The position numbers and the translations under genes are program-made. The notes beneath the pieces were generated by a model that was not told the origin of the DNA, did no database searches, and saw nothing but the letters and a program-made list of their open reading frames with translations. Below, one piece after another: positions 1,663 to 12,176 of a stretch of 12,176 bases of DNA. Location: the NCBI GenBank assembly GCA_048633705.1, contig JAIWBS010000009.1:1-12176 (forward strand), in the 5' to 3' direction. Source of the stretch: Pirellulales bacterium. Its GTDB lineage: Bacteria; Patescibacteriota; Patescibacteriia; JBDRGY01. Every line of letters begins with the position of its first letter. The first letter of the stretch is position 1.

Positions 1663-2334
1663 ATGAAAGAAGATCAATCAGAACAAGCTATTCCCAAGCC
1701 GTGGTATTTTAAGCCCTGGGAGGTTTTGGTTTCTTTTTTATTGGTGATCGTTCTAGTTTGGTTGATTGGTTTGAATATGTGGTTATGGAATCCTGATCCT
1801 TTTCCTGAAGACAATGAGCAAGCAGCCAACCCTTTTGCTACTGACGTAGACGATGATCCCTCTTGGGGTCCGCTAAATTCCGGAATTACTATTATTTCTT
1901 TTCAGGATTTTACCTGTTCAGCTTGTGCCCAGGCTTACCAAGCCATGAAGCAGTTAAGGGAAAATTATCTGACCAAAATTCATTTTGTGTTTAGAGATTT
2001 TCCGATTATCGGGGCTAATTCAACCGTTGCCGCTATGGCAGCAGAATGTGCCGATGATCAGGGGAAATTTTGGGAAATGCACGATAAACTTTTTGAAAAT
2101 CAAGAAAGAATATCCAAAGAGTACGTCAAAGCTTTTGCTGCTCAGATCGGTTTAGATATGATGGATTTTAATGAATGTTACGATTCCAATAAATATCTCA
2201 ATGAGATTCGCAATGATTTCAATGAAGGATTGGCAGCCGGAGCTACTGCCACACCGACTTATTTTGTCAACGGCACCAGAGTTGAAGGTGCTTTTAGTTA
2301 TGATGTCTGGGCGGAGGTGATTGAGAGTATTTAG
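1663..2334 (+). CDS. Membrane-anchored DsbA/BdbD-family thiol-disulfide oxidoreductase (thioredoxin fold)
   Basis: The 1663..2334 ORF has an N-terminal TM helix (VLVSFLLVIVLVWLIGL). Its CxxC active site reads 'FTCSACAQ'. A cis-Pro loop 'ATPTYFVNG' and 'GKFWEMHDKLF' match the DsbA-like Thioredoxin_4 family. Confidence 0.8.
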   Translation: MKEDQSEQAIPKPWYFKPWEVLVSFLLVIVLVWLIGLNMWLWNPDPFPEDNEQAANPFATDVDDDPSWGPLNSGITIISFQDFTCSACAQAYQAMKQLRENYLTKIHFVFRDFPIIGANSTVAAMAAECADDQGKFWEMHDKLFENQERISKEYVKAFAAQIGLDMMDFNECYDSNKYLNEIRNDFNEGLAAGATATPTYFVNGTRVEGAFSYDVWAEVIESI

Positions 2335-2365
2335 CAGTAGTTACTCTTATTAATCTGTTTCGGGG

Positions 2366-2393
2366 TTGACATTTTTTTTAATTGTGTTAAGAT
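2366..2393 (+). promoter_or_regulatory. Sigma70-like promoter: -35 TTGACA, 16-nt spacer, extended -10 TGtTAAGAT
   Basis: TTGACA at 2366-2371, TG at 2385-2386, TAAGAT at 2388-2393. AAGGA lies 6 nt before the ATG at 2432. Confidence 0.4.
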
Positions 2394-2431
2394 TTGAAAA
2401 CAAGTTAAAAATTAATAAATAAAGGAAAAAT

Positions 2432-3205
2432 ATGGAAGACGAAAAAACACCAGAAAGTAAGGGGTTATTTAAGAATCAATCCAAATTAACCTTTATGTTG
2501 GGTTTATTTATAGGGATTGCCGTGGTATCCACTTTTGCTTTCTTTTTTACGCTAGTTGTTCTGCTTAATGATGGCGAAGAGAGTGGAAATGTGGCTTCTG
2601 CCGACGGAGCCGTGGCCGGTCAAGCTGACGCTGATCCCGGTCCAATACCAACAGACGGTACAGCACCGCAAGCTCAAGGTAATATCGAACTGATTGTTAC
2701 CATCGACGACAATACACCAATTCGGGGCAACAAAGATGCCAAAGTGACCTTAATTGAATTTTCTGATTTTGAATGTTCTTATTGTTCCAGGCATCAGGAA
2801 ACTTTGAAACAGATCGTGGATGAATTTCCCAATGATGTTAGATTGGTCTACAAGCACTTTCCTTTGTCATTCCACACCAATGCTCAGAAAGCAGCTGAAG
2901 CCTCAGAATGTGCCGGTGAGCAAGGTAAGTTTTGGGAAATGCATGACAAACTATACGAAGCAGCCGCTAACAAAGAATTGAGTGTAGAGAAATATAAAGA
3001 GTTGGCCAAAGATCTGGGTTTAAATACCGGTCAATTCGATTCCTGTCTGGATGACGGCACCTACGCTTCCAAAGTCCAATCAGATATGCAGGAAGGGATT
3101 GCGGCTGGCGTAGAAGGTACTCCTGGTACCTTTATCAACGGTACTCTGATTTCCGGAGCAGTACCCTACGATTCTTTCGTAACGGTGATTCAAGGCGAAC
3201 TCTAA
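2432..3205 (+). CDS. Second membrane-anchored DsbA/BdbD-family thiol-disulfide oxidoreductase, a paralog of the upstream gene
   Basis: The 2432..3205 ORF has a TM helix, then a low-complexity Ala/Gly/Asp/Pro linker, then a thioredoxin domain. The CxxC reads 'FECSYCSRH'. 'GKFWEMHDKLY' and the cis-Pro loop 'GTPGTFINGTL' are clearly paralogous to ORF 1663..2334. Confidence 0.8.
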   Translation: MEDEKTPESKGLFKNQSKLTFMLGLFIGIAVVSTFAFFFTLVVLLNDGEESGNVASADGAVAGQADADPGPIPTDGTAPQAQGNIELIVTIDDNTPIRGNKDAKVTLIEFSDFECSYCSRHQETLKQIVDEFPNDVRLVYKHFPLSFHTNAQKAAEASECAGEQGKFWEMHDKLYEAAANKELSVEKYKELAKDLGLNTGQFDSCLDDGTYASKVQSDMQEGIAAGVEGTPGTFINGTLISGAVPYDSFVTVIQGEL

Positions 3206-3966: not shown

Positions 3967-4045
3967 TAATTAGAATAATTAAAAACTCCATTTAGTGGAA
4001 TTTTTTTGTTTATGGGTTTAAAATAAGGCTGCATTAGTTATAAGG

Positions 4046-4074
4046 TTGACAAATTCACAGATATGTGATAATAT
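4046..4074 (+). promoter_or_regulatory. Consensus sigma70 promoter: -35 TTGACA, 17-nt spacer, extended -10 TGaTAATAT
   Basis: TTGACA at 4046-4051, TG at 4066-4067, TAATAT at 4069-4074. The predicted TSS is ~4081, giving a ~127-nt leader to the ATG at 4208. Confidence 0.6.
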
Positions 4075-4207
4075 CACCCGTCATCCTAGGAGTATTGTCT
4101 CTTGGGACGATCTGTCCTTTTTAGGATGGAATATAGTGTACATTGACAAGTTCTGAGTGCTAAACAAGCAGTATAACCAATGGCCATCAAACACGGAGGT
4201 GATGAGA

Positions 4208-5632
4208 ATGTATTGGCCCATAGTGTGGATCTGTATCGTCGTTGCTGTCATCGTGCTGGCGGTTGTTTTTCACAAGAAGGTTATCGAGGCAATCACCAGA
4301 TCAGCTACTCAGGTGGCCAGAGAGATAGCCCACAAGACAGTGGATGCGCGCATCGACGAGCTGAAGCCGATTACTGAAGGAGAGGCTGAATCGTCTAGTC
4401 AGGGCGGTAACGCCACGCAAAGTCCGGTTTACGAGAGTGTACCGGACATCAAGATCCGAAAGAACAGCTGGTTACTCTTTCCACTGGTTATCCAGTTGAT
4501 AGCGGTTGTTGTCATCTGGTCGCTTACTAGCGGTTTCGGAGATTCCGGTTGGAGCTGGCAGGGTTTCGCCCAGGGTCTGGCTAAGGCCGGATTGCTGGAG
4601 CTCGGCCTGGCTCTTCTGATCAAGCCGCAGCGAGTCGAGCAGCGGAGAGCCCGAGGCATCGAGTTTCTGGGCCGTCCGGTAGCCATCGCTCTAGAAGGAC
4701 TGGTTTTCCTCTGGCGTTGGGAGAGACTAAGCACCAAGCTAGGTACTGCCGAAGATACCGACGGCAAGAAAGTAACCAGAGCGGTGCCTCATTTCGTGAC
4801 TTCTCGGATGGTTACCATAGACATGGAACCTGAGGATGTTCACGATGAGGACATGGTTCCCTTCAAGGTTCAGATGGCCATGAAGTATGAGGTAGTCTGG
4901 ACTGAACAGGGAATCGTAGCAGCTCTCTACGGTTTCGAAGGTGACATCGAGATGCATATTGACCAGTCACTGCGGTCGGCTCTGGCAGATTTTGCTGGCA
5001 GTAAGAAAGTCAAAGATGTTCCTAGTAGCCAGAAAGAGCTGGAAGCCAGTGTCGAAACGTACTTCAAGAAAGAGGCCCTCGATTTCGTTCATCGCTTCGG
5101 CTATAAGTTGAAACAGGCTGAGTACAAAGGCCTGACTAGTCGGTTCTCCGATGCTCTGGCGGCTGGACAAATCAAGAAAGCCCTGGCAGCTGGTGATATT
5201 GCGGAGGCTGAAGGTAAGAAGCGAGCTGCCATGAAGGGGACCGATGCCAGGGTCTACGACATCGAAGAGAGCGGTAAGGCAGAGGCCAAGCGTCGAAAGA
5301 TGCTGGCGAAAGCTGATGCCAAGCGGCTGGAGCAGGCTATCCTGCAGATGGCTGGTTCTAATACAGAATTGGCCCAGCTTTCAGCCGAGGATAGACGTCA
5401 TCTGGCTGAGCGGGCGGCTGATTACCTTGGCACGCTCGACTACAACGCGGCCATCAAGACAGGAGCAGCTGACGAGAGTACGGTCGTCTTTGCCTCCCAG
5501 AGAGTGCCTGGTGTTCAGTTGGACGAGGCAGCTCTGCGTAGTGTGGTTTACCGTGTCATGCACGAAACTCTACCCGGAGGCAACGAGGCTGAGAACGGAC
5601 CTGCTGCGGCTGGTGCTGCTGCCGGGCAGTAA
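4208..5632 (+). CDS. SPFH/band-7 (flotillin/YqiK-like) membrane protein with two N-terminal TM helices and an Ala/Glu/Lys-rich coiled-coil C-terminus, high-GC
   Basis: The ORF track starts this frame at GTG 4157. GGAGG at 4195-4199 is optimally spaced (8 nt) for ATG 4208, where 'MYWPIVWICIVVAVIVLAVVF' begins. The SPFH-like core reads 'IALEGLVFLWRWERLS...VPHFVTSRMVTIDMEPEDV...FKVQMAMKYEVV...LRSALADFAGSKKVKDV'. It is followed by EA/K-rich repeats 'AEAEGKKRAAMKGTDARVYDIEESGKAEAKRRKMLAKADAKRLEQA' that resemble flotillin coiled coils. GC is ~55-60% against ~37% in the flanks. Confidence 0.55.
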   Translation: MYWPIVWICIVVAVIVLAVVFHKKVIEAITRSATQVAREIAHKTVDARIDELKPITEGEAESSSQGGNATQSPVYESVPDIKIRKNSWLLFPLVIQLIAVVVIWSLTSGFGDSGWSWQGFAQGLAKAGLLELGLALLIKPQRVEQRRARGIEFLGRPVAIALEGLVFLWRWERLSTKLGTAEDTDGKKVTRAVPHFVTSRMVTIDMEPEDVHDEDMVPFKVQMAMKYEVVWTEQGIVAALYGFEGDIEMHIDQSLRSALADFAGSKKVKDVPSSQKELEASVETYFKKEALDFVHRFGYKLKQAEYKGLTSRFSDALAAGQIKKALAAGDIAEAEGKKRAAMKGTDARVYDIEESGKAEAKRRKMLAKADAKRLEQAILQMAGSNTELAQLSAEDRRHLAERAADYLGTLDYNAAIKTGAADESTVVFASQRVPGVQLDEAALRSVVYRVMHETLPGGNEAENGPAAAGAAAGQ

Positions 5633-5650
5633 GCCGGAAAGGAGGGCGCC

Positions 5651-6799
5651 ATGAAGGTTAAGTGGATTTGGATCGCGATGGCTGGCTTCCTGGCTCTCTG
5701 GCTTTTGTCCAACGTTGACTTCAGTCGGCCGGCTGAGACGGTGAAAGCTGAGGTTGGAGCAGTTCAGGGTCTCCAGTTTAACTGGCTCTGGGCGGTTATC
5801 GCTCTGATCGTGTTGATCGTAGTATTGGTCATTCTGGCCAAGAAAGGAATCCTGAAGAATACCGGGTTGCCGAGCAAACTGTTGCTAGCAATCTTGTTCC
5901 TGGTTATGGCTATCGGCATCTTAGTGGCTGTTATCAAGCCGGATCGGTTACTGTTGATGGCCAAAGGGGAACCAGTAATATTCTTCGTATGTCTGGGTTT
6001 GCTGATTGTGGGCATTGGGTTCTGGAAGTTGTCAGAGCTGAACTACCCAGTCTGGTTTGCTTTCGTTGCCTTGTTGCTAGTTCTGCCGATTGGTCTGGCA
6101 AGAACCAATCCAGATCGAACGCCGAGTCATGACGAGCTGGAAACCGTCTTCGAGCACGAATGTTACCCCATTACCGACCCTGAGCGTTTGGCCCAATTTC
6201 CCTCTGTAGTTCGGGCTTACGACGTTAAGGTCGGACTGATCGAGGGTGGTGTAGGTGTTAGTAAGATCACCTTCACTGCCGAGGATGAGGGGTACTGGTG
6301 CCTGCTACGCAATTGGCAGGGCTGGTGGTGTGTCGGTGACGAGAAGACAGGCCGTCCGGTGGTTGGTATTCAAGGAGAGCCATCCTGGGAGTACGGTGAC
6401 AACAGAATGTGTACTTCCCGGAAATGGAATGTCGGCGGCTTGATGTGTTGGATTGGTACGCCGTTTGCCTACGACATGCCGCGAAAAGGGCTCTATAGCC
6501 TCAAGCACAACCCTTACTGGGAGCCCAGTCATCCAGACTGTTTCTTGGTGGGAGGAGACAAGCTGTTTCCCATCTTAGCCAAGGACTGGCTGGAATGGCT
6601 GGGTACAGATGAGGGCAACATCGTACTCTGCGGCAACGAGTCTGAAAACGGCTACAATGATGGCAACAATCTAGGTTTTGTCTGGGGTGAGCTCTGGATT
6701 CTCAGAGAGCGCCCGGTAGAGAGCCAGTTGCTGCCGTTGTTGGAGAAGTCTCGTGGTCGTACGAGCACTCAGAACACATGTGGGGTTTCTCCCGCATGA
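5651..6799 (+). CDS. Polytopic membrane protein (~5 TM) with a ~230-aa C-terminal Cys- and Trp-rich domain of unknown function, high-GC
   Basis: The 5651..6799 ORF has GGAGGG 5 nt upstream of its ATG. Five hydrophobic helices occupy the first ~150 aa. The C-terminal domain holds 8 Cys and ~12 Trp (YWCLLRNWQGWWCVGD, MCWIGTPFAYD, HPDCFLVGG) and I recognise no family in it. Codon usage is GC-rich like the upstream gene. Confidence 0.6.
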   Translation: MKVKWIWIAMAGFLALWLLSNVDFSRPAETVKAEVGAVQGLQFNWLWAVIALIVLIVVLVILAKKGILKNTGLPSKLLLAILFLVMAIGILVAVIKPDRLLLMAKGEPVIFFVCLGLLIVGIGFWKLSELNYPVWFAFVALLLVLPIGLARTNPDRTPSHDELETVFEHECYPITDPERLAQFPSVVRAYDVKVGLIEGGVGVSKITFTAEDEGYWCLLRNWQGWWCVGDEKTGRPVVGIQGEPSWEYGDNRMCTSRKWNVGGLMCWIGTPFAYDMPRKGLYSLKHNPYWEPSHPDCFLVGGDKLFPILAKDWLEWLGTDEGNIVLCGNESENGYNDGNNLGFVWGELWILRERPVESQLLPLLEKSRGRTSTQNTCGVSPA

Positions 6800-6805
6800 C
6801 TTCAC

Positions 6806-6846
6806 GGCCCCAGCGAGCATCGCTTGCTGGGGCCTCTTCTTTTTCT
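6806..6846 (+). terminator. Rho-independent terminator
   Basis: GGCCCCAGCGAGC (6806-6818), loop ATC, GCTTGCTGGGGCC (6822-6834). This is a 13-bp stem with one G.U pair, followed by TCTTCTTTTTCT. Confidence 0.8.
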
Positions 6847-6861
6847 AAAAAGTGACAAAAT

Positions 6862-6870
6862 TGCTATAAT
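6862..6870 (+). promoter_or_regulatory. Extended -10 element TGcTATAAT, 6 nt upstream of the ATG at 6877 (leaderless-type)
   Basis: TGCTATAAT at 6862-6870. ATG at 6877 with no SD. This is the same architecture as at 1645-1663. Confidence 0.4.
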
Positions 6871-6876
6871 AAGGGC

Positions 6877-8427
6877 ATGAAGGTAATTACCAAAAAGGAA
6901 TGGCTTTGGGTTTTGATTTTTGCCTGTTTGGTGATGTTGGTAACAGTGGTTCCTTATATTTATGGAATGTTAATCAAGCCGGACAATTTGTATTTTTCCG
7001 GGGTGCACCGCTTAAATTCTGGCGATACTTATTCTTATCTGGCTTGGATGCAGCAAGCCAGAGAAGGTAACTGGCTATTCAAGATATTATACACAACTGA
7101 AGCACAGCCCAGAGTGATTTTCTTGCCGTTTTTTCTGGTGATGGGTTGGTTGGCCCGATTGACCAATTTATCCAATATTGCCTTTTTTCATTTATCCCGG
7201 TTTATTTTAGGGATAATTTTTTTATTGGTGGCCTATAAATTTTTGGCTCTGTTTTTTAATGAAGTTAGAAAAAGGAAAATTGCTTTGGCTGTTTTGGCCT
7301 TGAGTTCTGGTTTGGGTTGGTTATTTGGCAATTACAGTTTATCGACTGATAAATTCATGACCGAGTCCATTACCTTTTTAAATCTTTATGAATCCCCTCT
7401 CAATTTAATTTCTTTAATATTGATACTTACAACTTTTTATTTTTTACTACGCTCTTTTAAGGAGAATCAAAAGAGATTTATTGGTTTTTCTGGTTTGTCT
7501 TTGTTATTTTTACATTTGATTCATCCTTTTGATTCTATAACCGTAATGATTACTGTGGTTTTTTTGATGACTTTTTTATTCCTTTACAGTCGAGATTTTT
7601 GGCCTAAATTGAAAACGGCTATTTTTGTTATTTTGATTAGCTTGCCAGGATTATTTATTACCATTTTCGCCTTTATCAAAAATCCGGCTTTGCATAGCTG
7701 GCACGAAGCTAATGTCAGACTTTCTCCTTCTTTCTGGGCTTATTTATCGGGTTACGGTTTGTTGATAGTACTGGCCTTGTTTAGTATCAAAAAGTTTTCA
7801 GTTAAAGAAGACAAATTCTCTTTGGTTATGGCTTGGTTGATTACCACTTTAATTTTGATTTGGCAACCTTTTCTTCATTTCCAAAGAAAGTTTGCTTTAG
7901 GGTTGCATATCCCCATTGTTATTTTGGCGGTGATCGGTCTTTTCGGGCTGGCCAAGAAATTTAAATTATCCCGCAAATTTGTTATTGGTTTAATTATTGT
8001 CTTATCCTTTACCAACATCAAGATAATGTTAAACGACACCTATTCTTTCGACTCCCTGACTGCTCCTTATTATTGGAACCAGGATTATATCACGGCGATC
8101 GAGTGGCTGGCGGATCAAGAAAAAGGAGTAGTTTTGACTAATCCTAGTATTTCTAATATTGTTCCGGGTTTATCTGGTCAGACAGTTTATTCAGGACATA
8201 CTGATCAAACTAAAGATAGAGAGCATAAAATTGAAGAATTCAAATGGTTTATCAGTAGTCAGGGGACAATCACTGCCAAAAGGCAATTCTTGAGCGATAA
8301 AGGCATTAATTATATTCTTTATTTGACTGATTTAGTTGACGAGGATTATGTTTTAGTTCATCAAGATGATTTGGGATTAGAGCAAATTTATTTCAATGAC
8401 AGCTGTGCAATTTTCGGTTATAATTAA
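6877..8427 (+). CDS. Polytopic membrane protein, putative GT-C-fold glycosyltransferase (PMT_2/ArnT-like), with a C-terminal extracytoplasmic domain
   Basis: The 6877..8427 ORF has ~11 predicted TM helices. The first loop motif 'SGDTYSYLAWMQQAREGNWLF' resembles the ArnT/PMT 'DExRYAEIAREMxxSGDWxxP' region. A ~150-aa soluble C-terminal domain follows. The call rests on motif and topology only. Confidence 0.45.
   Translation: MKVITKKEWLWVLIFACLVMLVTVVPYIYGMLIKPDNLYFSGVHRLNSGDTYSYLAWMQQAREGNWLFKILYTTEAQPRVIFLPFFLVMGWLARLTNLSNIAFFHLSRFILGIIFLLVAYKFLALFFNEVRKRKIALAVLALSSGLGWLFGNYSLSTDKFMTESITFLNLYESPLNLISLILILTTFYFLLRSFKENQKRFIGFSGLSLLFLHLIHPFDSITVMITVVFLMTFLFLYSRDFWPKLKTAIFVILISLPGLFITIFAFIKNPALHSWHEANVRLSPSFWAYLSGYGLLIVLALFSIKKFSVKEDKFSLVMAWLITTLILIWQPFLHFQRKFALGLHIPIVILAVIGLFGLAKKFKLSRKFVIGLIIVLSFTNIKIMLNDTYSFDSLTAPYYWNQDYITAIEWLADQEKGVVLTNPSISNIVPGLSGQTVYSGHTDQTKDREHKIEEFKWFISSQGTITAKRQFLSDKGINYILYLTDLVDEDYVLVHQDDLGLEQIYFNDSCAIFGYN
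8396..8424 (+). promoter_or_regulatory. Candidate promoter for the large surface-protein gene, embedded in the 3' end of the upstream CDS: -35 ATGACA, 17-nt spacer, -10 TATAAT
   Basis: ATGACA at 8396-8401 and TATAAT at 8419-8424. AAGG lies 4 nt before ATG 8462. Confidence 0.35.
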
Positions 8428-8461: not shown

Positions 8462-11400
8462 ATGAAGAAAGTATTCAGTTTAATGGTCGTAATCGTCCTC
8501 ATAGGCGGTTTTTTTGTTCCAAAAAGTATAGTCCAAGCTACTTACGGTGATGTGACGACTTATCTCGGTCATATATATGGCGGCGATGGTGGTCCAGCCC
8601 TGGATGCCTATTTAGATTTTCCAGAGGACATTGCAGTGGATTCTTCAGGTAATTTTTTTGTGGCTGATACCTATAATAATGTTATCCGGAAAATTAATTC
8701 ATCAGGCACTATTTCCACTTTGGCCGGTACCGGTTCTAATGGTTTGACTAATGGTGTAGCTTTATCAGCTGAATTTTCTTTGCCCAGGGGAGTGGCCCTA
8801 GACGGATCCGGTAATGTTTATGTAGCGGATACGGGTAATAACGTTATTAGAAAAATATCAGGGGGAACAGTAACTACTTTAGTTAGCTCAGGTTTATCCG
8901 GGCCAGAGGGTTTGGTGGTTTACGGTTCAACCGTTTTCATCGCTGATACCGGCAATGATGCCATAAAAACAGTATCAACTTCTGGAGGCTCGGTGGCTAC
9001 TTTAGCCGGTTCGGGATTAAGTTCTCCCAAAAAAATTGACATCTCCAGTGGCGGTACACTTTTATACGTAGCTGATGCTGGTAGTTATCGAGTTTTGACT
9101 GTAGACACCGGAACCGGGGCAGTGGCTGTTTTAGCCGGCTCTGGAACCGAAGGATATCAAGAGGGAATTGGCACGGCAGCCAAGTTTCAAAACATCTGGG
9201 GGGTTACTCTTTACGATGGATATCTTTATGTAGCCGATGGGGATGGTTATGACGACTTGATCAGAAAGATTGACACTAGTACCGGCGAAACCAGTTTGTA
9301 CGCCGATGACAGTAATATGCTGTCAATCAATTTCGGTACCGGAATCAAAGTTTATGACGGATACATCTATTTATGCAATTCAGGGATCGGGACAATTCAT
9401 AAATTCAATTTACTGGACGATGGTGACAATGAACTATTTGCCGGTTATGAGCGATTTGGCTACCGCAATGGCACTAATCCGCTTTTTGGCCGGCCGCATG
9501 ATATGGTTATGACTAAAGACGGATCAACTTTTTATTTGGCTGATAATAATAAAATTAGAAAAATAGTTAAAGCGACTGGTAATACATCTTACATAACTGG
9601 CTCCTCGGTTGATAATTATCGAGAAGGTTTGCCAATGGGAGCCTCGGGTGGTATCGGAGTAGAGTCTCGCTTTAGTACCATTGCTTCTATTACTATTAAT
9701 AATGCCGGTACCTCCTTGTATCTAGTCGACCGTTGGAATAACCGTATTCGTAAAGTTGATTTATCTGATCCTGATTACCAAACATATCTGATTTCCGGGG
9801 CAGGACGAATAAACACCACTGGGCAGCAGACACACGGCTACCAAGAAGGGAAAAAATGTGTTTCGGTCAAAGATAAAGACGAGACATTTACCAAACAATC
9901 AGGTTGTGCCTATTTTGACAACCCCGCCGGAATTGTTATCTCTCCCGATAATAGCTATTTATATGTGGCTGATACCAATAATCAGCGAATTCGTAAGGTC
10001 AGTATTATCGACGGCCAGACTTCATTGGTAGCTGGCTCGGGTAGTGCTGCCTATAAAGATGGCACAGGATTGGCTGCCAGTTTTCACACACCTTATGGTA
10101 TAGCCATTGATCAATCTGGAGATTATTTATACGTGGCTGATCGGGATAATCACCGGATTAGAACAATTAATACCACGACCGGGGTGGTAACTACTTTGGC
10201 TGGCAACGGAACAGCTGGCTATCGAGACGCTATCGGTACGGATGCCGTATTTTCCTACCCAGAATATATTAAGATGGGAGCTGACGGTAATCTGTACGTG
10301 ACCGAAGTGGGTTCACACCGGATTCGAGTAGTAAATCCGATTACCGGCGACACCAGATTGGTAGCAGGTTCAGGCGATCGGGGTTTTGCTAACGGGGCCA
10401 AGGAGGAAGCAGAGTTCAATAATTTGGAAGGAATTGCCCCAGATACCGCCAATGACACAGTTTACGTAATAGACTCCTGGAATGATTTGATTCGCCAGGT
10501 GGATATCACTGGCGAGATTCCTTATACTGAACCGGCTCCAACAGTAACCTCTGTTGATCCGGATTTTGTGGAACCCAAATGGGACGACGGTACTGGTTTG
10601 CGGGTGAGGATTTTAGGTACCAATTTCCGTCATGGAGCAATTACCCAGTTTTACAATTATCGGGCAGAGGAGACTTATGTAGTTTCCAGTACAGAATTAG
10701 TTGCCGAATTGCCACTGGATCAAATGGCAGCCGGTTATTATGATGTCAAAGTAACTAATTTGGATGGTCAGTCAGCCACCTTGTCCAAGGGAATCGGAAT
10801 TTCTGATAATCTGGGCAGTGTTCCGGACGAACACTTTGCTTTGCCGGGAACGGTAAGTAATGAGGAAATAACTGTAGCTGAGGGTACTAGTTTTTACGCT
10901 TATGCCGAATCAATTCGCGGTGGTTATTACGTGGCAGTTGGCAATGTGAGGGATGATAATCGGGAAGAAATTGTGACCGGAACCGGAGAAGGGCTGGGAC
11001 CTCAAGTTCGAGTATTTGATTTGGAAGGCAATGATAAAACTACATTTTTTGCATACGCAGAACATTTAAGGTCGGGTATCAGGGTAGCGGTGGGAGATTT
11101 AAACGGCGATGGCAGGAACGAAATAATTACCGCTCCTGGTCCGGGTGGTCGTCCCCATATCCAGACTTTTGACGGTGATGGTAATCGATTAAATCCCGGT
11201 TTTATGGCTTTGGACGGGCAGTTTTTAGGTGGAGCTTTTGTAGCCTGTGGAGATATTAATGGTGATGGTAAAGACGAAATTATTGTTACAGCAGGGCCGG
11301 GTGGAGGACCGCATGTTACTGTTCACAATGGTGATGGGGAATTGTTAGCTTCTTTCTTTGCTTATGATCAGCATACTTTCCGTTATGGCATCAGACCGGC

Positions 11401-11821
11401 AGTTTTGGATCTAGACGGCGATGGTAAGATGGAAATCCTAACCGGCCCGGCAACCGGTTCACCTCACATTCAGACTTTCCAAATCAGGCCTAATGAAATC
11501 CGACAGCTTAATCCGGGTTTTTACGCCTATGATCCTGACTACAAGGGAGGAGTGTCAGTAACGGGAGGTGATATAGATGGTGATGGAGAGGATGAAATAA
11601 TAACCGGAGTAGGTGATCAAGCCACTCCTCTGGTTAGGGTATTTGATAATGACGGTTCTGGTCTTATCCGCCAAGAATTTTACGCCTATAACACTTCTTT
11701 TCTATCAGGAGTCAATGTTGCCTCCGGTGATGTAGACGGGGATGATATTGATGAAGTGGTTATGTCGCCTATGGCTGACGGAGGACCACAGATCAGGATA
11801 ATTGAAGTGGATAGATTATAG
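8462..11821 (+). CDS. Large secreted/surface multi-domain protein: signal peptide, 12 NHL repeats (two predicted 6-bladed beta-propellers), an IPT/TIG Ig-like domain, and 6 FG-GAP-like Ca-binding repeats
   Basis: This is the 8396..11821 ORF. ATG 8462 begins a signal peptide 'MKKVFSLMVVIVLIGGFFVPKSIVQA|TY'. There are twelve 'YVADxxNxRIRKI'-type NHL blades. The TIG-like segment is 'PTVTSVDPDF...YDVKVTNLDGQS'. Six ~51-aa repeats read 'F(Y)AY...GDxDGDGxxEIIT..G....P.v.vF'. No C-terminal anchor or LPXTG motif is present. Confidence 0.8.
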   Translation: MKKVFSLMVVIVLIGGFFVPKSIVQATYGDVTTYLGHIYGGDGGPALDAYLDFPEDIAVDSSGNFFVADTYNNVIRKINSSGTISTLAGTGSNGLTNGVALSAEFSLPRGVALDGSGNVYVADTGNNVIRKISGGTVTTLVSSGLSGPEGLVVYGSTVFIADTGNDAIKTVSTSGGSVATLAGSGLSSPKKIDISSGGTLLYVADAGSYRVLTVDTGTGAVAVLAGSGTEGYQEGIGTAAKFQNIWGVTLYDGYLYVADGDGYDDLIRKIDTSTGETSLYADDSNMLSINFGTGIKVYDGYIYLCNSGIGTIHKFNLLDDGDNELFAGYERFGYRNGTNPLFGRPHDMVMTKDGSTFYLADNNKIRKIVKATGNTSYITGSSVDNYREGLPMGASGGIGVESRFSTIASITINNAGTSLYLVDRWNNRIRKVDLSDPDYQTYLISGAGRINTTGQQTHGYQEGKKCVSVKDKDETFTKQSGCAYFDNPAGIVISPDNSYLYVADTNNQRIRKVSIIDGQTSLVAGSGSAAYKDGTGLAASFHTPYGIAIDQSGDYLYVADRDNHRIRTINTTTGVVTTLAGNGTAGYRDAIGTDAVFSYPEYIKMGADGNLYVTEVGSHRIRVVNPITGDTRLVAGSGDRGFANGAKEEAEFNNLEGIAPDTANDTVYVIDSWNDLIRQVDITGEIPYTEPAPTVTSVDPDFVEPKWDDGTGLRVRILGTNFRHGAITQFYNYRAEETYVVSSTELVAELPLDQMAAGYYDVKVTNLDGQSATLSKGIGISDNLGSVPDEHFALPGTVSNEEITVAEGTSFYAYAESIRGGYYVAVGNVRDDNREEIVTGTGEGLGPQVRVFDLEGNDKTTFFAYAEHLRSGIRVAVGDLNGDGRNEIITAPGPGGRPHIQTFDGDGNRLNPGFMALDGQFLGGAFVACGDINGDGKDEIIVTAGPGGGPHVTVHNGDGELLASFFAYDQHTFRYGIRPAVLDLDGDGKMEILTGPATGSPHIQTFQIRPNEIRQLNPGFYAYDPDYKGGVSVTGGDIDGDGEDEIITGVGDQATPLVRVFDNDGSGLIRQEFYAYNTSFLSGVNVASGDVDGDDIDEVVMSPMADGGPQIRIIEVDRL
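8540..10510 (+). repeat. Intragenic array of 12 NHL repeats (protein-level tandem repeats)
   Basis: Recurring motifs include VADTYNNVIRKIN, VADTGNNVIRKIS, IADTGNDAIKTVS, VADAGSYRVLTVD, LIRKID, LADNNKIRKIVK, LVDRWNNRIRKVD, VADTNNQRIRKVS, VADRDNHRIRTIN, VTEVGSHRIRVVN and VIDSWNDLIRQVD. Confidence 0.7.
10889..11818 (+). repeat. Intragenic array of 6 FG-GAP/integrin-alpha-like repeats with DxDGDGxxE calcium-binding loops, period ~150-165 nt
   Basis: Repeat starts are at ~10892, 11044, 11200, 11353, 11518 and 11668 (FYAYAE, FFAYAE, FMALDG, FFAYDQ, FYAYDP, FYAYNT). Each is followed by GDLNGDGRNEIITAPGPGGRPHIQTF-type segments. Confidence 0.65.
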
Positions 11822-11907: not shown

Positions 11908-11936
11908 TTGACAAAAAGTTAAATTTAGTGTATAAT
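11908..11936 (+). promoter_or_regulatory. Consensus sigma70 promoter: -35 TTGACA, 17-nt spacer, -10 TATAAT
   Basis: TTGACA at 11908-11913. Spacer 11914-11930. TATAAT at 11931-11936 with TG immediately upstream. TSS ~11943. Confidence 0.6.
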
Positions 11937-12005
11937 AGTAGTAAGAAATATATTAATCTTGCAGTAAAGTACGGATAGATGATTAATAAATTAATCGGAG
12001 AAAAT

Positions 12006-12033
12006 TAGACCTTTTGTAGGTCTTTTATAATTT
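12006..12033 (+). other. Terminator-like hairpin (AGACCT / AGGTCT, 5-nt loop) plus a U-rich tract, ending 1 nt before the ATG at 12034. Candidate leader attenuator.
   Basis: AGACCT at 12006-12011, loop TTTGT, AGGTCT at 12017-12022, then TTTATAATTTT. It lies ~65-90 nt downstream of the consensus promoter. Confidence 0.35.
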
Positions 12034-12176
12034 TATGAAAAGCGAACATAAATCAAAACAAACTTCCGGAAATTTGGCCAAGGCGATCTTGTTAGTGATT
12101 GGCTTTGGTTTTTAAAGAAGAATGCGTGGTTTATACTTACGTTATTCAGAGTGAAAAAGATGGTAAATGGTATACC
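12034..12176 (+). CDS. 3'-truncated ORF encoding a small N-terminally anchored membrane protein (47+ aa, runs off the window)
   Basis: ATG at 12034. My own translation reads MKSEHKSKQTSGNLAKAILLVIGLWFLKKNAWFILTLFRVKKMVNGIP with no stop before the window end. It shows a basic N-terminus followed by a hydrophobic helix. It is not in the supplied ORF track because it is truncated. Confidence 0.35.

Follow-up and report, generated by a model that had tools for sequence, protein, structure and literature searches.

The 12,176-bp contig JAIWBS010000009.1, analysed in full and called the window here, has all of its large open reading frames (ORFs) on the + strand. One of them, at 8462..11821, encodes a protein built mostly of beta-propellers and predicted to be secreted. 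We propose that this propeller protein is a calcium-stabilised extracellular binding platform, that is, an adhesin or a ligand receptor. We consider this reading fairly probable; our confidence comes mostly from the architecture, which is well supported, and less from the binding role, which is drawn by analogy. The protein, of about 116 kDa, would be exported through the Sec pathway, processed by signal peptidase I and left without an anchor by a Kerfeldbacteria-like member of the Patescibacteria (Candidate Phyla Radiation, CPR). Its chain would consist of non-catalytic modules, namely two NHL propellers, an IPT/TIG Ig-like spacer and a six-bladed VCBS/FG-GAP propeller, the latter stiffened by five calcium ions in DxDxDGxxE hairpin loops. 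Binding would depend on calcium and take place at the cell surface, with a glycan or a protein of a host cell or substrate as the ligand.

In terms of domains, the NHL repeats come first. Pfam NHL (PF01436) reaches 122 bits against a cut-off of 20, in five stretches, and TEN_NHL reaches 82.8 bits. The full-length AlphaFold2 (AF2) model was built from a 61-sequence alignment, with a mean predicted local distance difference test score (pLDDT) of 92.2 and a predicted template modelling score (pTM) of 0.68. In this model, residues 54-681 form twelve NHL blades, eleven with four strands and the last with three, and an extra N-terminal strand is found at 31-36. Residues 28-322 and 323-686 align colinearly over 269 columns (hhalign, probability 100%, E 3.3e-44), and the twelve blades are therefore two homologous six-bladed propellers. 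Superposition with complete six-bladed NHL domains gives 1.9-2.0 A (for TRIM71, 273/277 residues at 2.0 A), and the fold is the closed six-bladed one of NHL repeat propellers (PF01436). A single ring of twelve blades was considered and ruled out, given these superpositions and the colinear duplicate halves. Duplication of a six-blade unit would be the best explanation for the similarity of the two halves.

NHL propeller 1 covers residues 28-322 (8543..9427, +), with the closing strand at 31-36 and blades starting near 54, 110, 148, 189, 245 and 292. NHL propeller 2 covers residues 323-686 (9428..10519, +), with blades starting near 345, 407, 491, 544, 600 and 655. It contains a 45-residue insertion (446-490) that holds the sole paired cysteines of the protein, C466 and C482. 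In the model, blade 12 contributes just three strands, and strand 31-36 resembles the fourth strand of a blade; each NHL ring is therefore probably closed by the strand preceding that ring in the chain, judging from strand order. The residues of the NHL region that are invariant in the family belong to the structural NHL motif (D..N..IR, G, P). Sequence matches of this region in the PDB are the PknD sensor and Pizza derivatives, teneurin-like proteins, SOQ1, NHLRC2 and TRIM71.

Next in the chain is a probable IPT/TIG-like Ig domain at residues 688-784 (10523..10813, +), to which Pfam, NCBIfam, PDB profile matches and the AF2 model all point. The full-length Pfam scan of the protein gave no match to TIG (PF01833). 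With segment 688-784 scanned alone, the score was 20.5 bits (E 4.9e-4), which narrowly misses the cut-off of 20.9. Of 35 orthologous segments, 29 match the same model, the best of them at E 5.9e-9. NCBIfam CoaZ_rpt_PGGG matches residues 691-773 with 42.4 bits against a cut-off of 30, and a profile of the segment finds in the PDB RBP-J, at its TIG domain, and cyclodextrin glucanotransferases (CGTase), at their domain D. Seven beta-strands, in a putative Ig-like arrangement, are modelled at 694-780. The identity of the domain is thus supported at the family level and marginal for this sequence alone. An earlier description of the gene, made from the letters of the window without searches (the sequence-only reading), had named a TIG domain; the assignment is supported for the family, while the present sequence itself falls short of the Pfam threshold.

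The C-terminal module is a six-bladed propeller of FG-GAP/VCBS type at residues 806-1119 (10877..11818, +). On residues 795-1119, FG-GAP_3 (PF13517) reaches 75.5 bits and FG-GAP (PF01839) 67.1 bits; with the full-length scan counted in, the ranges are 62-75 and 55-67 bits, all of them above cut-offs. A separate AF2 model of this domain (pLDDT 90.9, pTM 0.88) has 24 strands, or six blades. The six repeats start at 811, 862, 914, 965, 1020 and 1073. Each opens with F[YF]AY, except the one at 914, which has FMAL. Weak sequence matches of this propeller in the PDB are integrin alpha-V and CRTAC1, and the names given in connection with it are TRIM2, Brat, Bacillus phytase, PAL and PknD. A tblastn search of the domain against plasmids returned one weak Mycobacterium match.

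Five of the six blades have a loop of the form D-x-[DN]-G-D-x-x-x-E, at 879, 931, 983, 1037 and 1090. These predicted calcium loops are DLNGDGRNE in blade 2 (11096..11122, +), DINGDGKDE in blade 3 (11252..11278, +), DLDGDGKME in blade 4 (11408..11434, +), DIDGDGEDE in blade 5 (11570..11596, +) and DVDGDDIDE in blade 6 (11729..11755, +), all supported by the motif and by the family alignment. Ligand positions 1, 3, 5 and 9 of blades 2-6 are kept in 47-61 of the 61 members, and the D/N/D/E positions of blade 2 in 54-59 of them. Blade 1 has instead NVRDDNREE (10943..10969, +), which is degenerate in most family members and not expected to bind calcium. We infer from sequence that the five intact loops are occupied by calcium.

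Most of the domain architecture in the sequence-only reading is borne out, including the twelve NHL blades in two propellers and the six-bladed FG-GAP-like propeller. It had proposed a Pfam scan and an AlphaFold model as checks; the scan detects NHL and FG-GAP well above cut-offs, and the model gives three propellers of 6+6+6 blades with confidence. Two details need revision. A calcium loop had been assigned to every repeat, which is right for blades 2-6 and not for blade 1, and the turn 'GPGGxPH', said to be conserved, has this exact form in just two of the six blades.

As for export, a Sec-type signal peptide is predicted at residues 1-26 (8462..8539, +), composed of MKK, 16 hydrophobic residues and VQA, with TYGD following the cleavage point. 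Hydropathy, family conservation and an AF2 helix at 2-17 point to it. The peptide has the n-h-c pattern, with small residues at -3 and -1, and the 61-member alignment keeps small-x-A before the cut and (A/T)YGD after it. Sec export and cleavage by signal peptidase I after A26 can be inferred from this layout. Kyte-Doolittle 19-residue windows of at least 1.6 start solely at residues 1-9, and by the same measure no second membrane-grade hydrophobic segment is found past residue 27 in the whole protein. Its sequence contains no LPxTG-like sorting motif and no lipobox cysteine, the first Cys being residue 305. The last strand of the C-terminal propeller ends at 1114, five residues short of the stop. 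Both the VQA cleavage site and a C-terminus free of cell-wall or membrane anchors had been claimed before, and the data agree. The protein could be released from the cell or retained non-covalently. A lipoprotein reading, prompted by the nearby lgt gene, was discarded for want of the lipobox cysteine.

The coding sequence at 8462..11821 (+) comprises 1119 amino acids and a stop codon, according to the ORF list and translation. The coordinates given earlier are therefore right, and the earlier length of 1120 aa becomes 1119 residues plus the stop. The mature protein has a computed size of about 1093 aa and 116 kDa, and is acidic (isoelectric point, pI, 4.45). A longer ORF of 1141 aa begins at ATG 8396, and an identical protein at NCBI uses that start. 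Three observations favour ATG 8462. The longer ORF overlaps the upstream gene, which ends at 8427. ATG 8396 is also the first base of a promoter-like element, ATGACA-17 nt-TATAAT (8396..8424, +; 11/12 matches, consensus scan only), about 37 nt 5' of the start codon. Lastly, in nearly all of the 61 aligned relatives a short basic segment and a hydrophobic helix open the chain, followed by (A/V/S/G)-x-A before the cleavage site and (A/T)-Y-G-D after it. For these reasons ATG 8462 is the better start, and the 1141-aa ORF is probably spurious.

The blades of the C-terminal propeller had been described as unusual, with F-Y-A-Y standing in place of the canonical FG. Neither part of this description holds. 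Positions 2-26 of the FG-GAP hidden Markov model (HMM) align to residues 924-948, beginning at the glycine of F921-L-G-G924. This G924 lies ten residues past the F of the F-M-A-L strand at 914, and the Phe of FG is best matched by F921, three positions ahead of G924. In general, the FG glycine is retained about 10 residues C-terminal to F-x-A-Y, with a hydrophobic residue, usually Phe, three residues before the glycine. The blade consensus of the family, FFAYxxxFRGGxxVAxGDxDGDGxxEIxTxPGxGGGPxVRxF, holds both F-x-G-G, equivalent to FG, and T/G-x-P, equivalent to GAP; in the present protein the GAP equivalents are TAP, TAG and TGP. In FG-GAP propellers, strand 1 carries FG, strand 2 carries GAP, and the calcium hairpin links the two (PMC3192720). 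Because this order puts FG in strand 1, F-x-A-Y would be the outermost, fourth strand of the blade, additional to FG. By the same strand order, the ring most likely closes through the first F-Y-A-Y strand (809-812), which would belong to the last blade.

The blade type is also frequent. In a search of 1.84 billion cluster representatives, a profile made from the six blades of the present protein found 44,169 of them at E <= 1e-3, of which 6,023 reached E <= 1e-30. The best 150 of the 44,169 are 294-4928 aa long and mostly have 6, 7, 11 or 12 matched stretches; in 109 of these 150, the motif F[FYMLW]A[YF] occurs four or more times. Nine of the matches were scanned for domains, and the module was found joined to DUF11, to carbonic anhydrase with SdrD_B and He_PIG, to DUF5122 propellers and to others. 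Only one of those nine comes with an organism name, Planctomycetota. A separate search of a word-indexed protein database with the blade profile was uninformative, with only 7 short fragments.

The same picture is seen at the DNA level. A degenerate DNA pattern (F-[FY]-A-Y, twelve residues, G-D-x-[DN]-G-D-G) occurred in none of 200 shuffles of the window and in at least 120 stretches of species-representative genomes. The matches listed are from Gemmataceae, Fimbriiglobus, the cultured Limnoglobus roseus PX52, Singulisphaera, Rhodopirellula, Gammaproteobacteria, Alcaligenaceae, Acidimicrobiia, Chloroflexota, Saccharimonadia, Uhrbacteria, Falkowbacteria, Magasanikbacteria and Parcubacteria, and on translation they show the same blade, for example in Limnoglobus. 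VCBS-type propellers have a DxDxDG motif, the median of their blade numbers is six, and their typical targets of recognition are carbohydrates or proteins (Pereira and Lupas, PMC9218822). Given the abundance across bacterial phyla and this median of six, the F-x-A-Y blade is a standard bacterial VCBS/FG-GAP blade, and both the signature and the blade number are ordinary. The result as it stands is mainly a correction, with neither fold, motif nor mechanism being new.

Every part of the protein, the F-x-A-Y blade included, belongs to a common and known type. The six-bladed NHL propellers of NHLRC2, SOQ1, TRIM71/Brat, Mycobacterium tuberculosis PknD and teneurin are the nearest to its N-terminal half. 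Here two of them stand in tandem in one secreted chain, with no thioredoxin, TRIM, kinase or YD-shell partner domain, and propeller 2 has the 45-residue Cys-Cys insertion, which sets it apart from these. With the VCBS/FG-GAP_3 propellers, the third supercluster of Pereira and Lupas, it shares the DxDxDG motif and six blades (PMC9218822). Its blade consensus is common to thousands of proteins of Planctomycetota, Proteobacteria, Actinomycetota, Chloroflexota and Patescibacteria, and only the partner domains differ, being here two NHL propellers and TIG. The integrin alpha FG-GAP propeller and the bacterial integrin-type ones share with it the FG-GAP HMM match and calcium hairpins that connect strand 1 to strand 2 (Chouhan et al. 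2011, PMC3192720). However, the integrin type is seven-bladed, with seven FG-GAP/Cage repeats (Chouhan et al. 2011), and ours has six blades. Finally, Bacteroides surface proteins (PDB 3hrp and 3tc9 / BT_3476, 'auxiliary nutrient binding protein') likewise combine an Ig-like domain with an NHL propeller. These are single-propeller lipoproteins encoded in polysaccharide utilisation loci, whereas the present protein has three propellers, no lipobox and a Patescibacteria genome as its source.

Among the 120 best matches, more than 100 are full-length relatives, and those listed are 1063-1161 aa long and 44-86% identical. The named organisms among them are all Patescibacteria, Kerfeldbacteria, Parcubacteria or an unclassified 'bacterium', and the annotations read FG-GAP-like, VCBS, IPT/TIG or hypothetical. 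A literature search found nothing specific on this propeller family in CPR or Kerfeldbacteria. The protein, itself uncharacterised, belongs to known domain families and joins them in an arrangement that is conserved and specific to Patescibacteria (Kerfeldbacteria-like).

As for the genomic context, the genes upstream in the window are, in order, a ComEC competence domain, a separate metallo-beta-lactamase (MBL), two DsbA-like genes, lgt, an SPFH-like gene, a gene for a multi-pass transmembrane (TM) protein rich in Cys and Trp, and an orphan with about 10 TM segments. The loci compared included L001-L005 and L126-L128, L002 and L003 being one protein on two contigs. Among eight loci examined, five have the propeller gene 0-7 kb downstream of comEC and MBL, on the same strand; counted by distinct proteins it is five of seven, which are 52-100% identical to the present one. 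L001, L002/L003 and L004 share the order comEC, MBL, variable genes and propeller gene, and in L126 the propeller gene follows MBL directly, with a 4-nt overlap. This synteny is absent in L127 and L128, and L005 has too little upstream DNA to tell. The immediate upstream genes are non-homologous between loci, save for the SPFH-like gene and one weak pair, and there is likewise no constant set of genes downstream. The idea of a conserved operon that includes the three genes before the propeller gene was rejected, with only the SPFH-like gene and, weakly, the TM/Cys-rich gene recurring. We read the comEC linkage more probably as inherited gene order than as a functional operon, with a link to ComEC or to the membrane neighbours being conceivable.

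Several lines of evidence bear on function. The Pfam scan found no catalytic domain in the protein, and the family alignment shows no invariant His or Cys in the propellers, the NHL region included. The residues that are invariant belong to the structural NHL motif or are glycines, prolines and calcium ligands. In characterised relatives, all four modules are non-catalytic binding or spacer domains, which by analogy may apply here too. The two DsbA-like genes and lgt in the same row of genes give an extracytoplasmic theme, which we count in favour of a binding platform. The sequence-only reading had suggested an adhesin or ligand-binding platform, possibly for host attachment, and this is reasonable for these domain types, by analogy, and agrees with the lack of a catalytic domain. 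Some points weigh against a binding platform. The relatives, in the identity and length ranges given above, are more conserved than is usual for fast-evolving adhesins; one or two blades match the Pfam models SGL, Arylesterase and Lactonase with scores that exceed the cut-offs; and no mechanism of cell retention is visible in the protein.

As an alternative, the protein would be an extracellular enzyme in which one NHL propeller is a lactonase-, arylesterase- or PAL-like hydrolase or lyase, with the other domains targeting it to a substrate. We hold this to be quite unlikely, since the enzyme matches span about one third or less of each profile and lie on generic blade motifs (for SGL, PF08450, positions 133-216 of 246, that is 84 positions, at 47.3 bits), and NHL and TEN_NHL score far higher. 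The invariant residues are those of the structural motif, as seen above, with columns 486-487 before the invariant P488 being variable, and the closest structures are non-enzymatic NHL propellers. A structural role in the envelope, either surface-layer-like or as a scaffold tied to the SPFH-like and multi-pass membrane neighbours, seems unlikely as well. The direct upstream genes are non-homologous between loci but for the weak pair, they are absent in L126-L128, and the Pfam and NCBIfam scans detected no self-assembly or cell-wall-binding domain (such as SLH).

It has also to be considered that the protein senses a ligand outside the cell and signals, via a membrane partner, to nearby response regulators, in the manner of the PknD NHL sensor or of the periplasmic two-propeller sensor in Bacteroides hybrid two-component systems. 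Its sequence and fold resemble the PknD sensor propeller, Foldseek matches the sensor domains of BT4663 and BT4673, and in L001 and L005, which are the closest relatives, response-regulator genes come shortly after the propeller gene, in L005 together with a histidine kinase. But the protein has no transmembrane or output domain, regulators are missing downstream in L002-L004 and L126-L128, and the window ends before the downstream genes. We regard such a sensor as very unlikely. Least credible of all is an accessory role in DNA uptake, in which the protein would capture extracellular DNA or host material and work with the ComEC channel; we hold it to be highly improbable. The comEC and MBL linkage in five loci, with the overlap in L126, and the name 'DNA-binding beta-propeller fold protein YncE' given by JGI to some members speak for it. 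This name is apparently a generic family-level label and no finding on this protein, while the synteny is broken in L127 and L128, cannot be followed in the short upstream DNA of L005 and has varying intervening genes elsewhere. Besides, the protein is strongly acidic (pI as above), which is unfavourable for DNA binding, and no DNA-binding domain was detected.

Some further observations concern the neighbouring genes. ComEC is split in the window, with a channel ORF at 65-793 and a metallo-beta-lactamase ORF at 786-1640, overlapping by 8 nt; the same split is present in every related locus with comEC (L001-L004, L126). Two paralogous DsbA-like genes of thioredoxin fold adjoin lgt (1663-3205), and in L001 an ABC transporter pair lies between them. 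The DsbA-like pair points to an extracytoplasmic disulfide-forming system, which would fit the conserved Cys466-Cys482 pair of the propeller protein. The G+C content is 0.50-0.55 over the SPFH-like gene (4157-5632) and the TM/Cys-Trp-rich gene (5651-6799), at about 4000-7000 of the window, with 0.34-0.40 in the flanking genes and about 0.34 in the 516-aa membrane gene. This island could mark foreign origin or unusual amino-acid usage.

The product of 5651-6799 combines an N-terminal half of five TM segments with a C-terminal half rich in Cys and Trp. A weak relationship (phmmer E 1e-7, small set) links it to that of L001 7726-8892, the gene directly upstream of the propeller gene in this closest long contig, and it could be a membrane partner of the secreted propeller protein. 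The gene at 6877-8427 encodes a 516-aa protein of an orphan family, for which about 10 TM segments are predicted. Even at E 10 neither Pfam nor NCBIfam matches it, and it has only 21 relatives among 5.8 billion proteins, one of them with PF20176. In none of the other loci examined does it lie next to the orthologue of the propeller gene. In layout the protein may be likened to GT-C glycosyltransferases.

Downstream of the propeller gene in the two closest relatives there are one or more stand-alone response-regulator genes (L001 13138-13900, L005 4477-11225). In L005 these are joined by a gene for a PAS/HAMP histidine kinase and another four receiver genes. The window stops short of this region. 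In the window itself, a perfect sigma-70 consensus, TTGACA-17 nt-TATAAT (12/12), is found at 11908-11936 and is followed by an AT-rich leader of about 70 nt. Then come a hairpin with a T-run at 12007-12033 (AGACCTTTTGTAGGTCT TTTATAATTT), terminator-like on both strands, and a 26-aa ORF with a hydrophobic tail at 12035-12115 (MKSEHKSKQTSGNLAKAILLVIGFGF), shortly before the contig ends. This small unit at 11908-12115 has no Rfam match and no significant fold (z-score -0.8).

A more far-reaching form of the binding-platform reading, which we hold to be quite improbable, is that of a core surface receptor found throughout the lineage of Kerfeldbacteria-like CPR, nearly constant in its length and architecture and co-inherited with ComEC, that captures a host-derived ligand and is maybe held at the membrane by the variable multi-pass Cys-rich protein of the gene just upstream. 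If true, the protein would be a key determinant of the episymbiotic lifestyle, its ligand being the host cell surface or extracellular DNA or material. If the binding role as such is right, it would be a conserved and easily recognised surface marker of one Patescibacteria lineage, usable for pull-down of host partners or for cell labelling.

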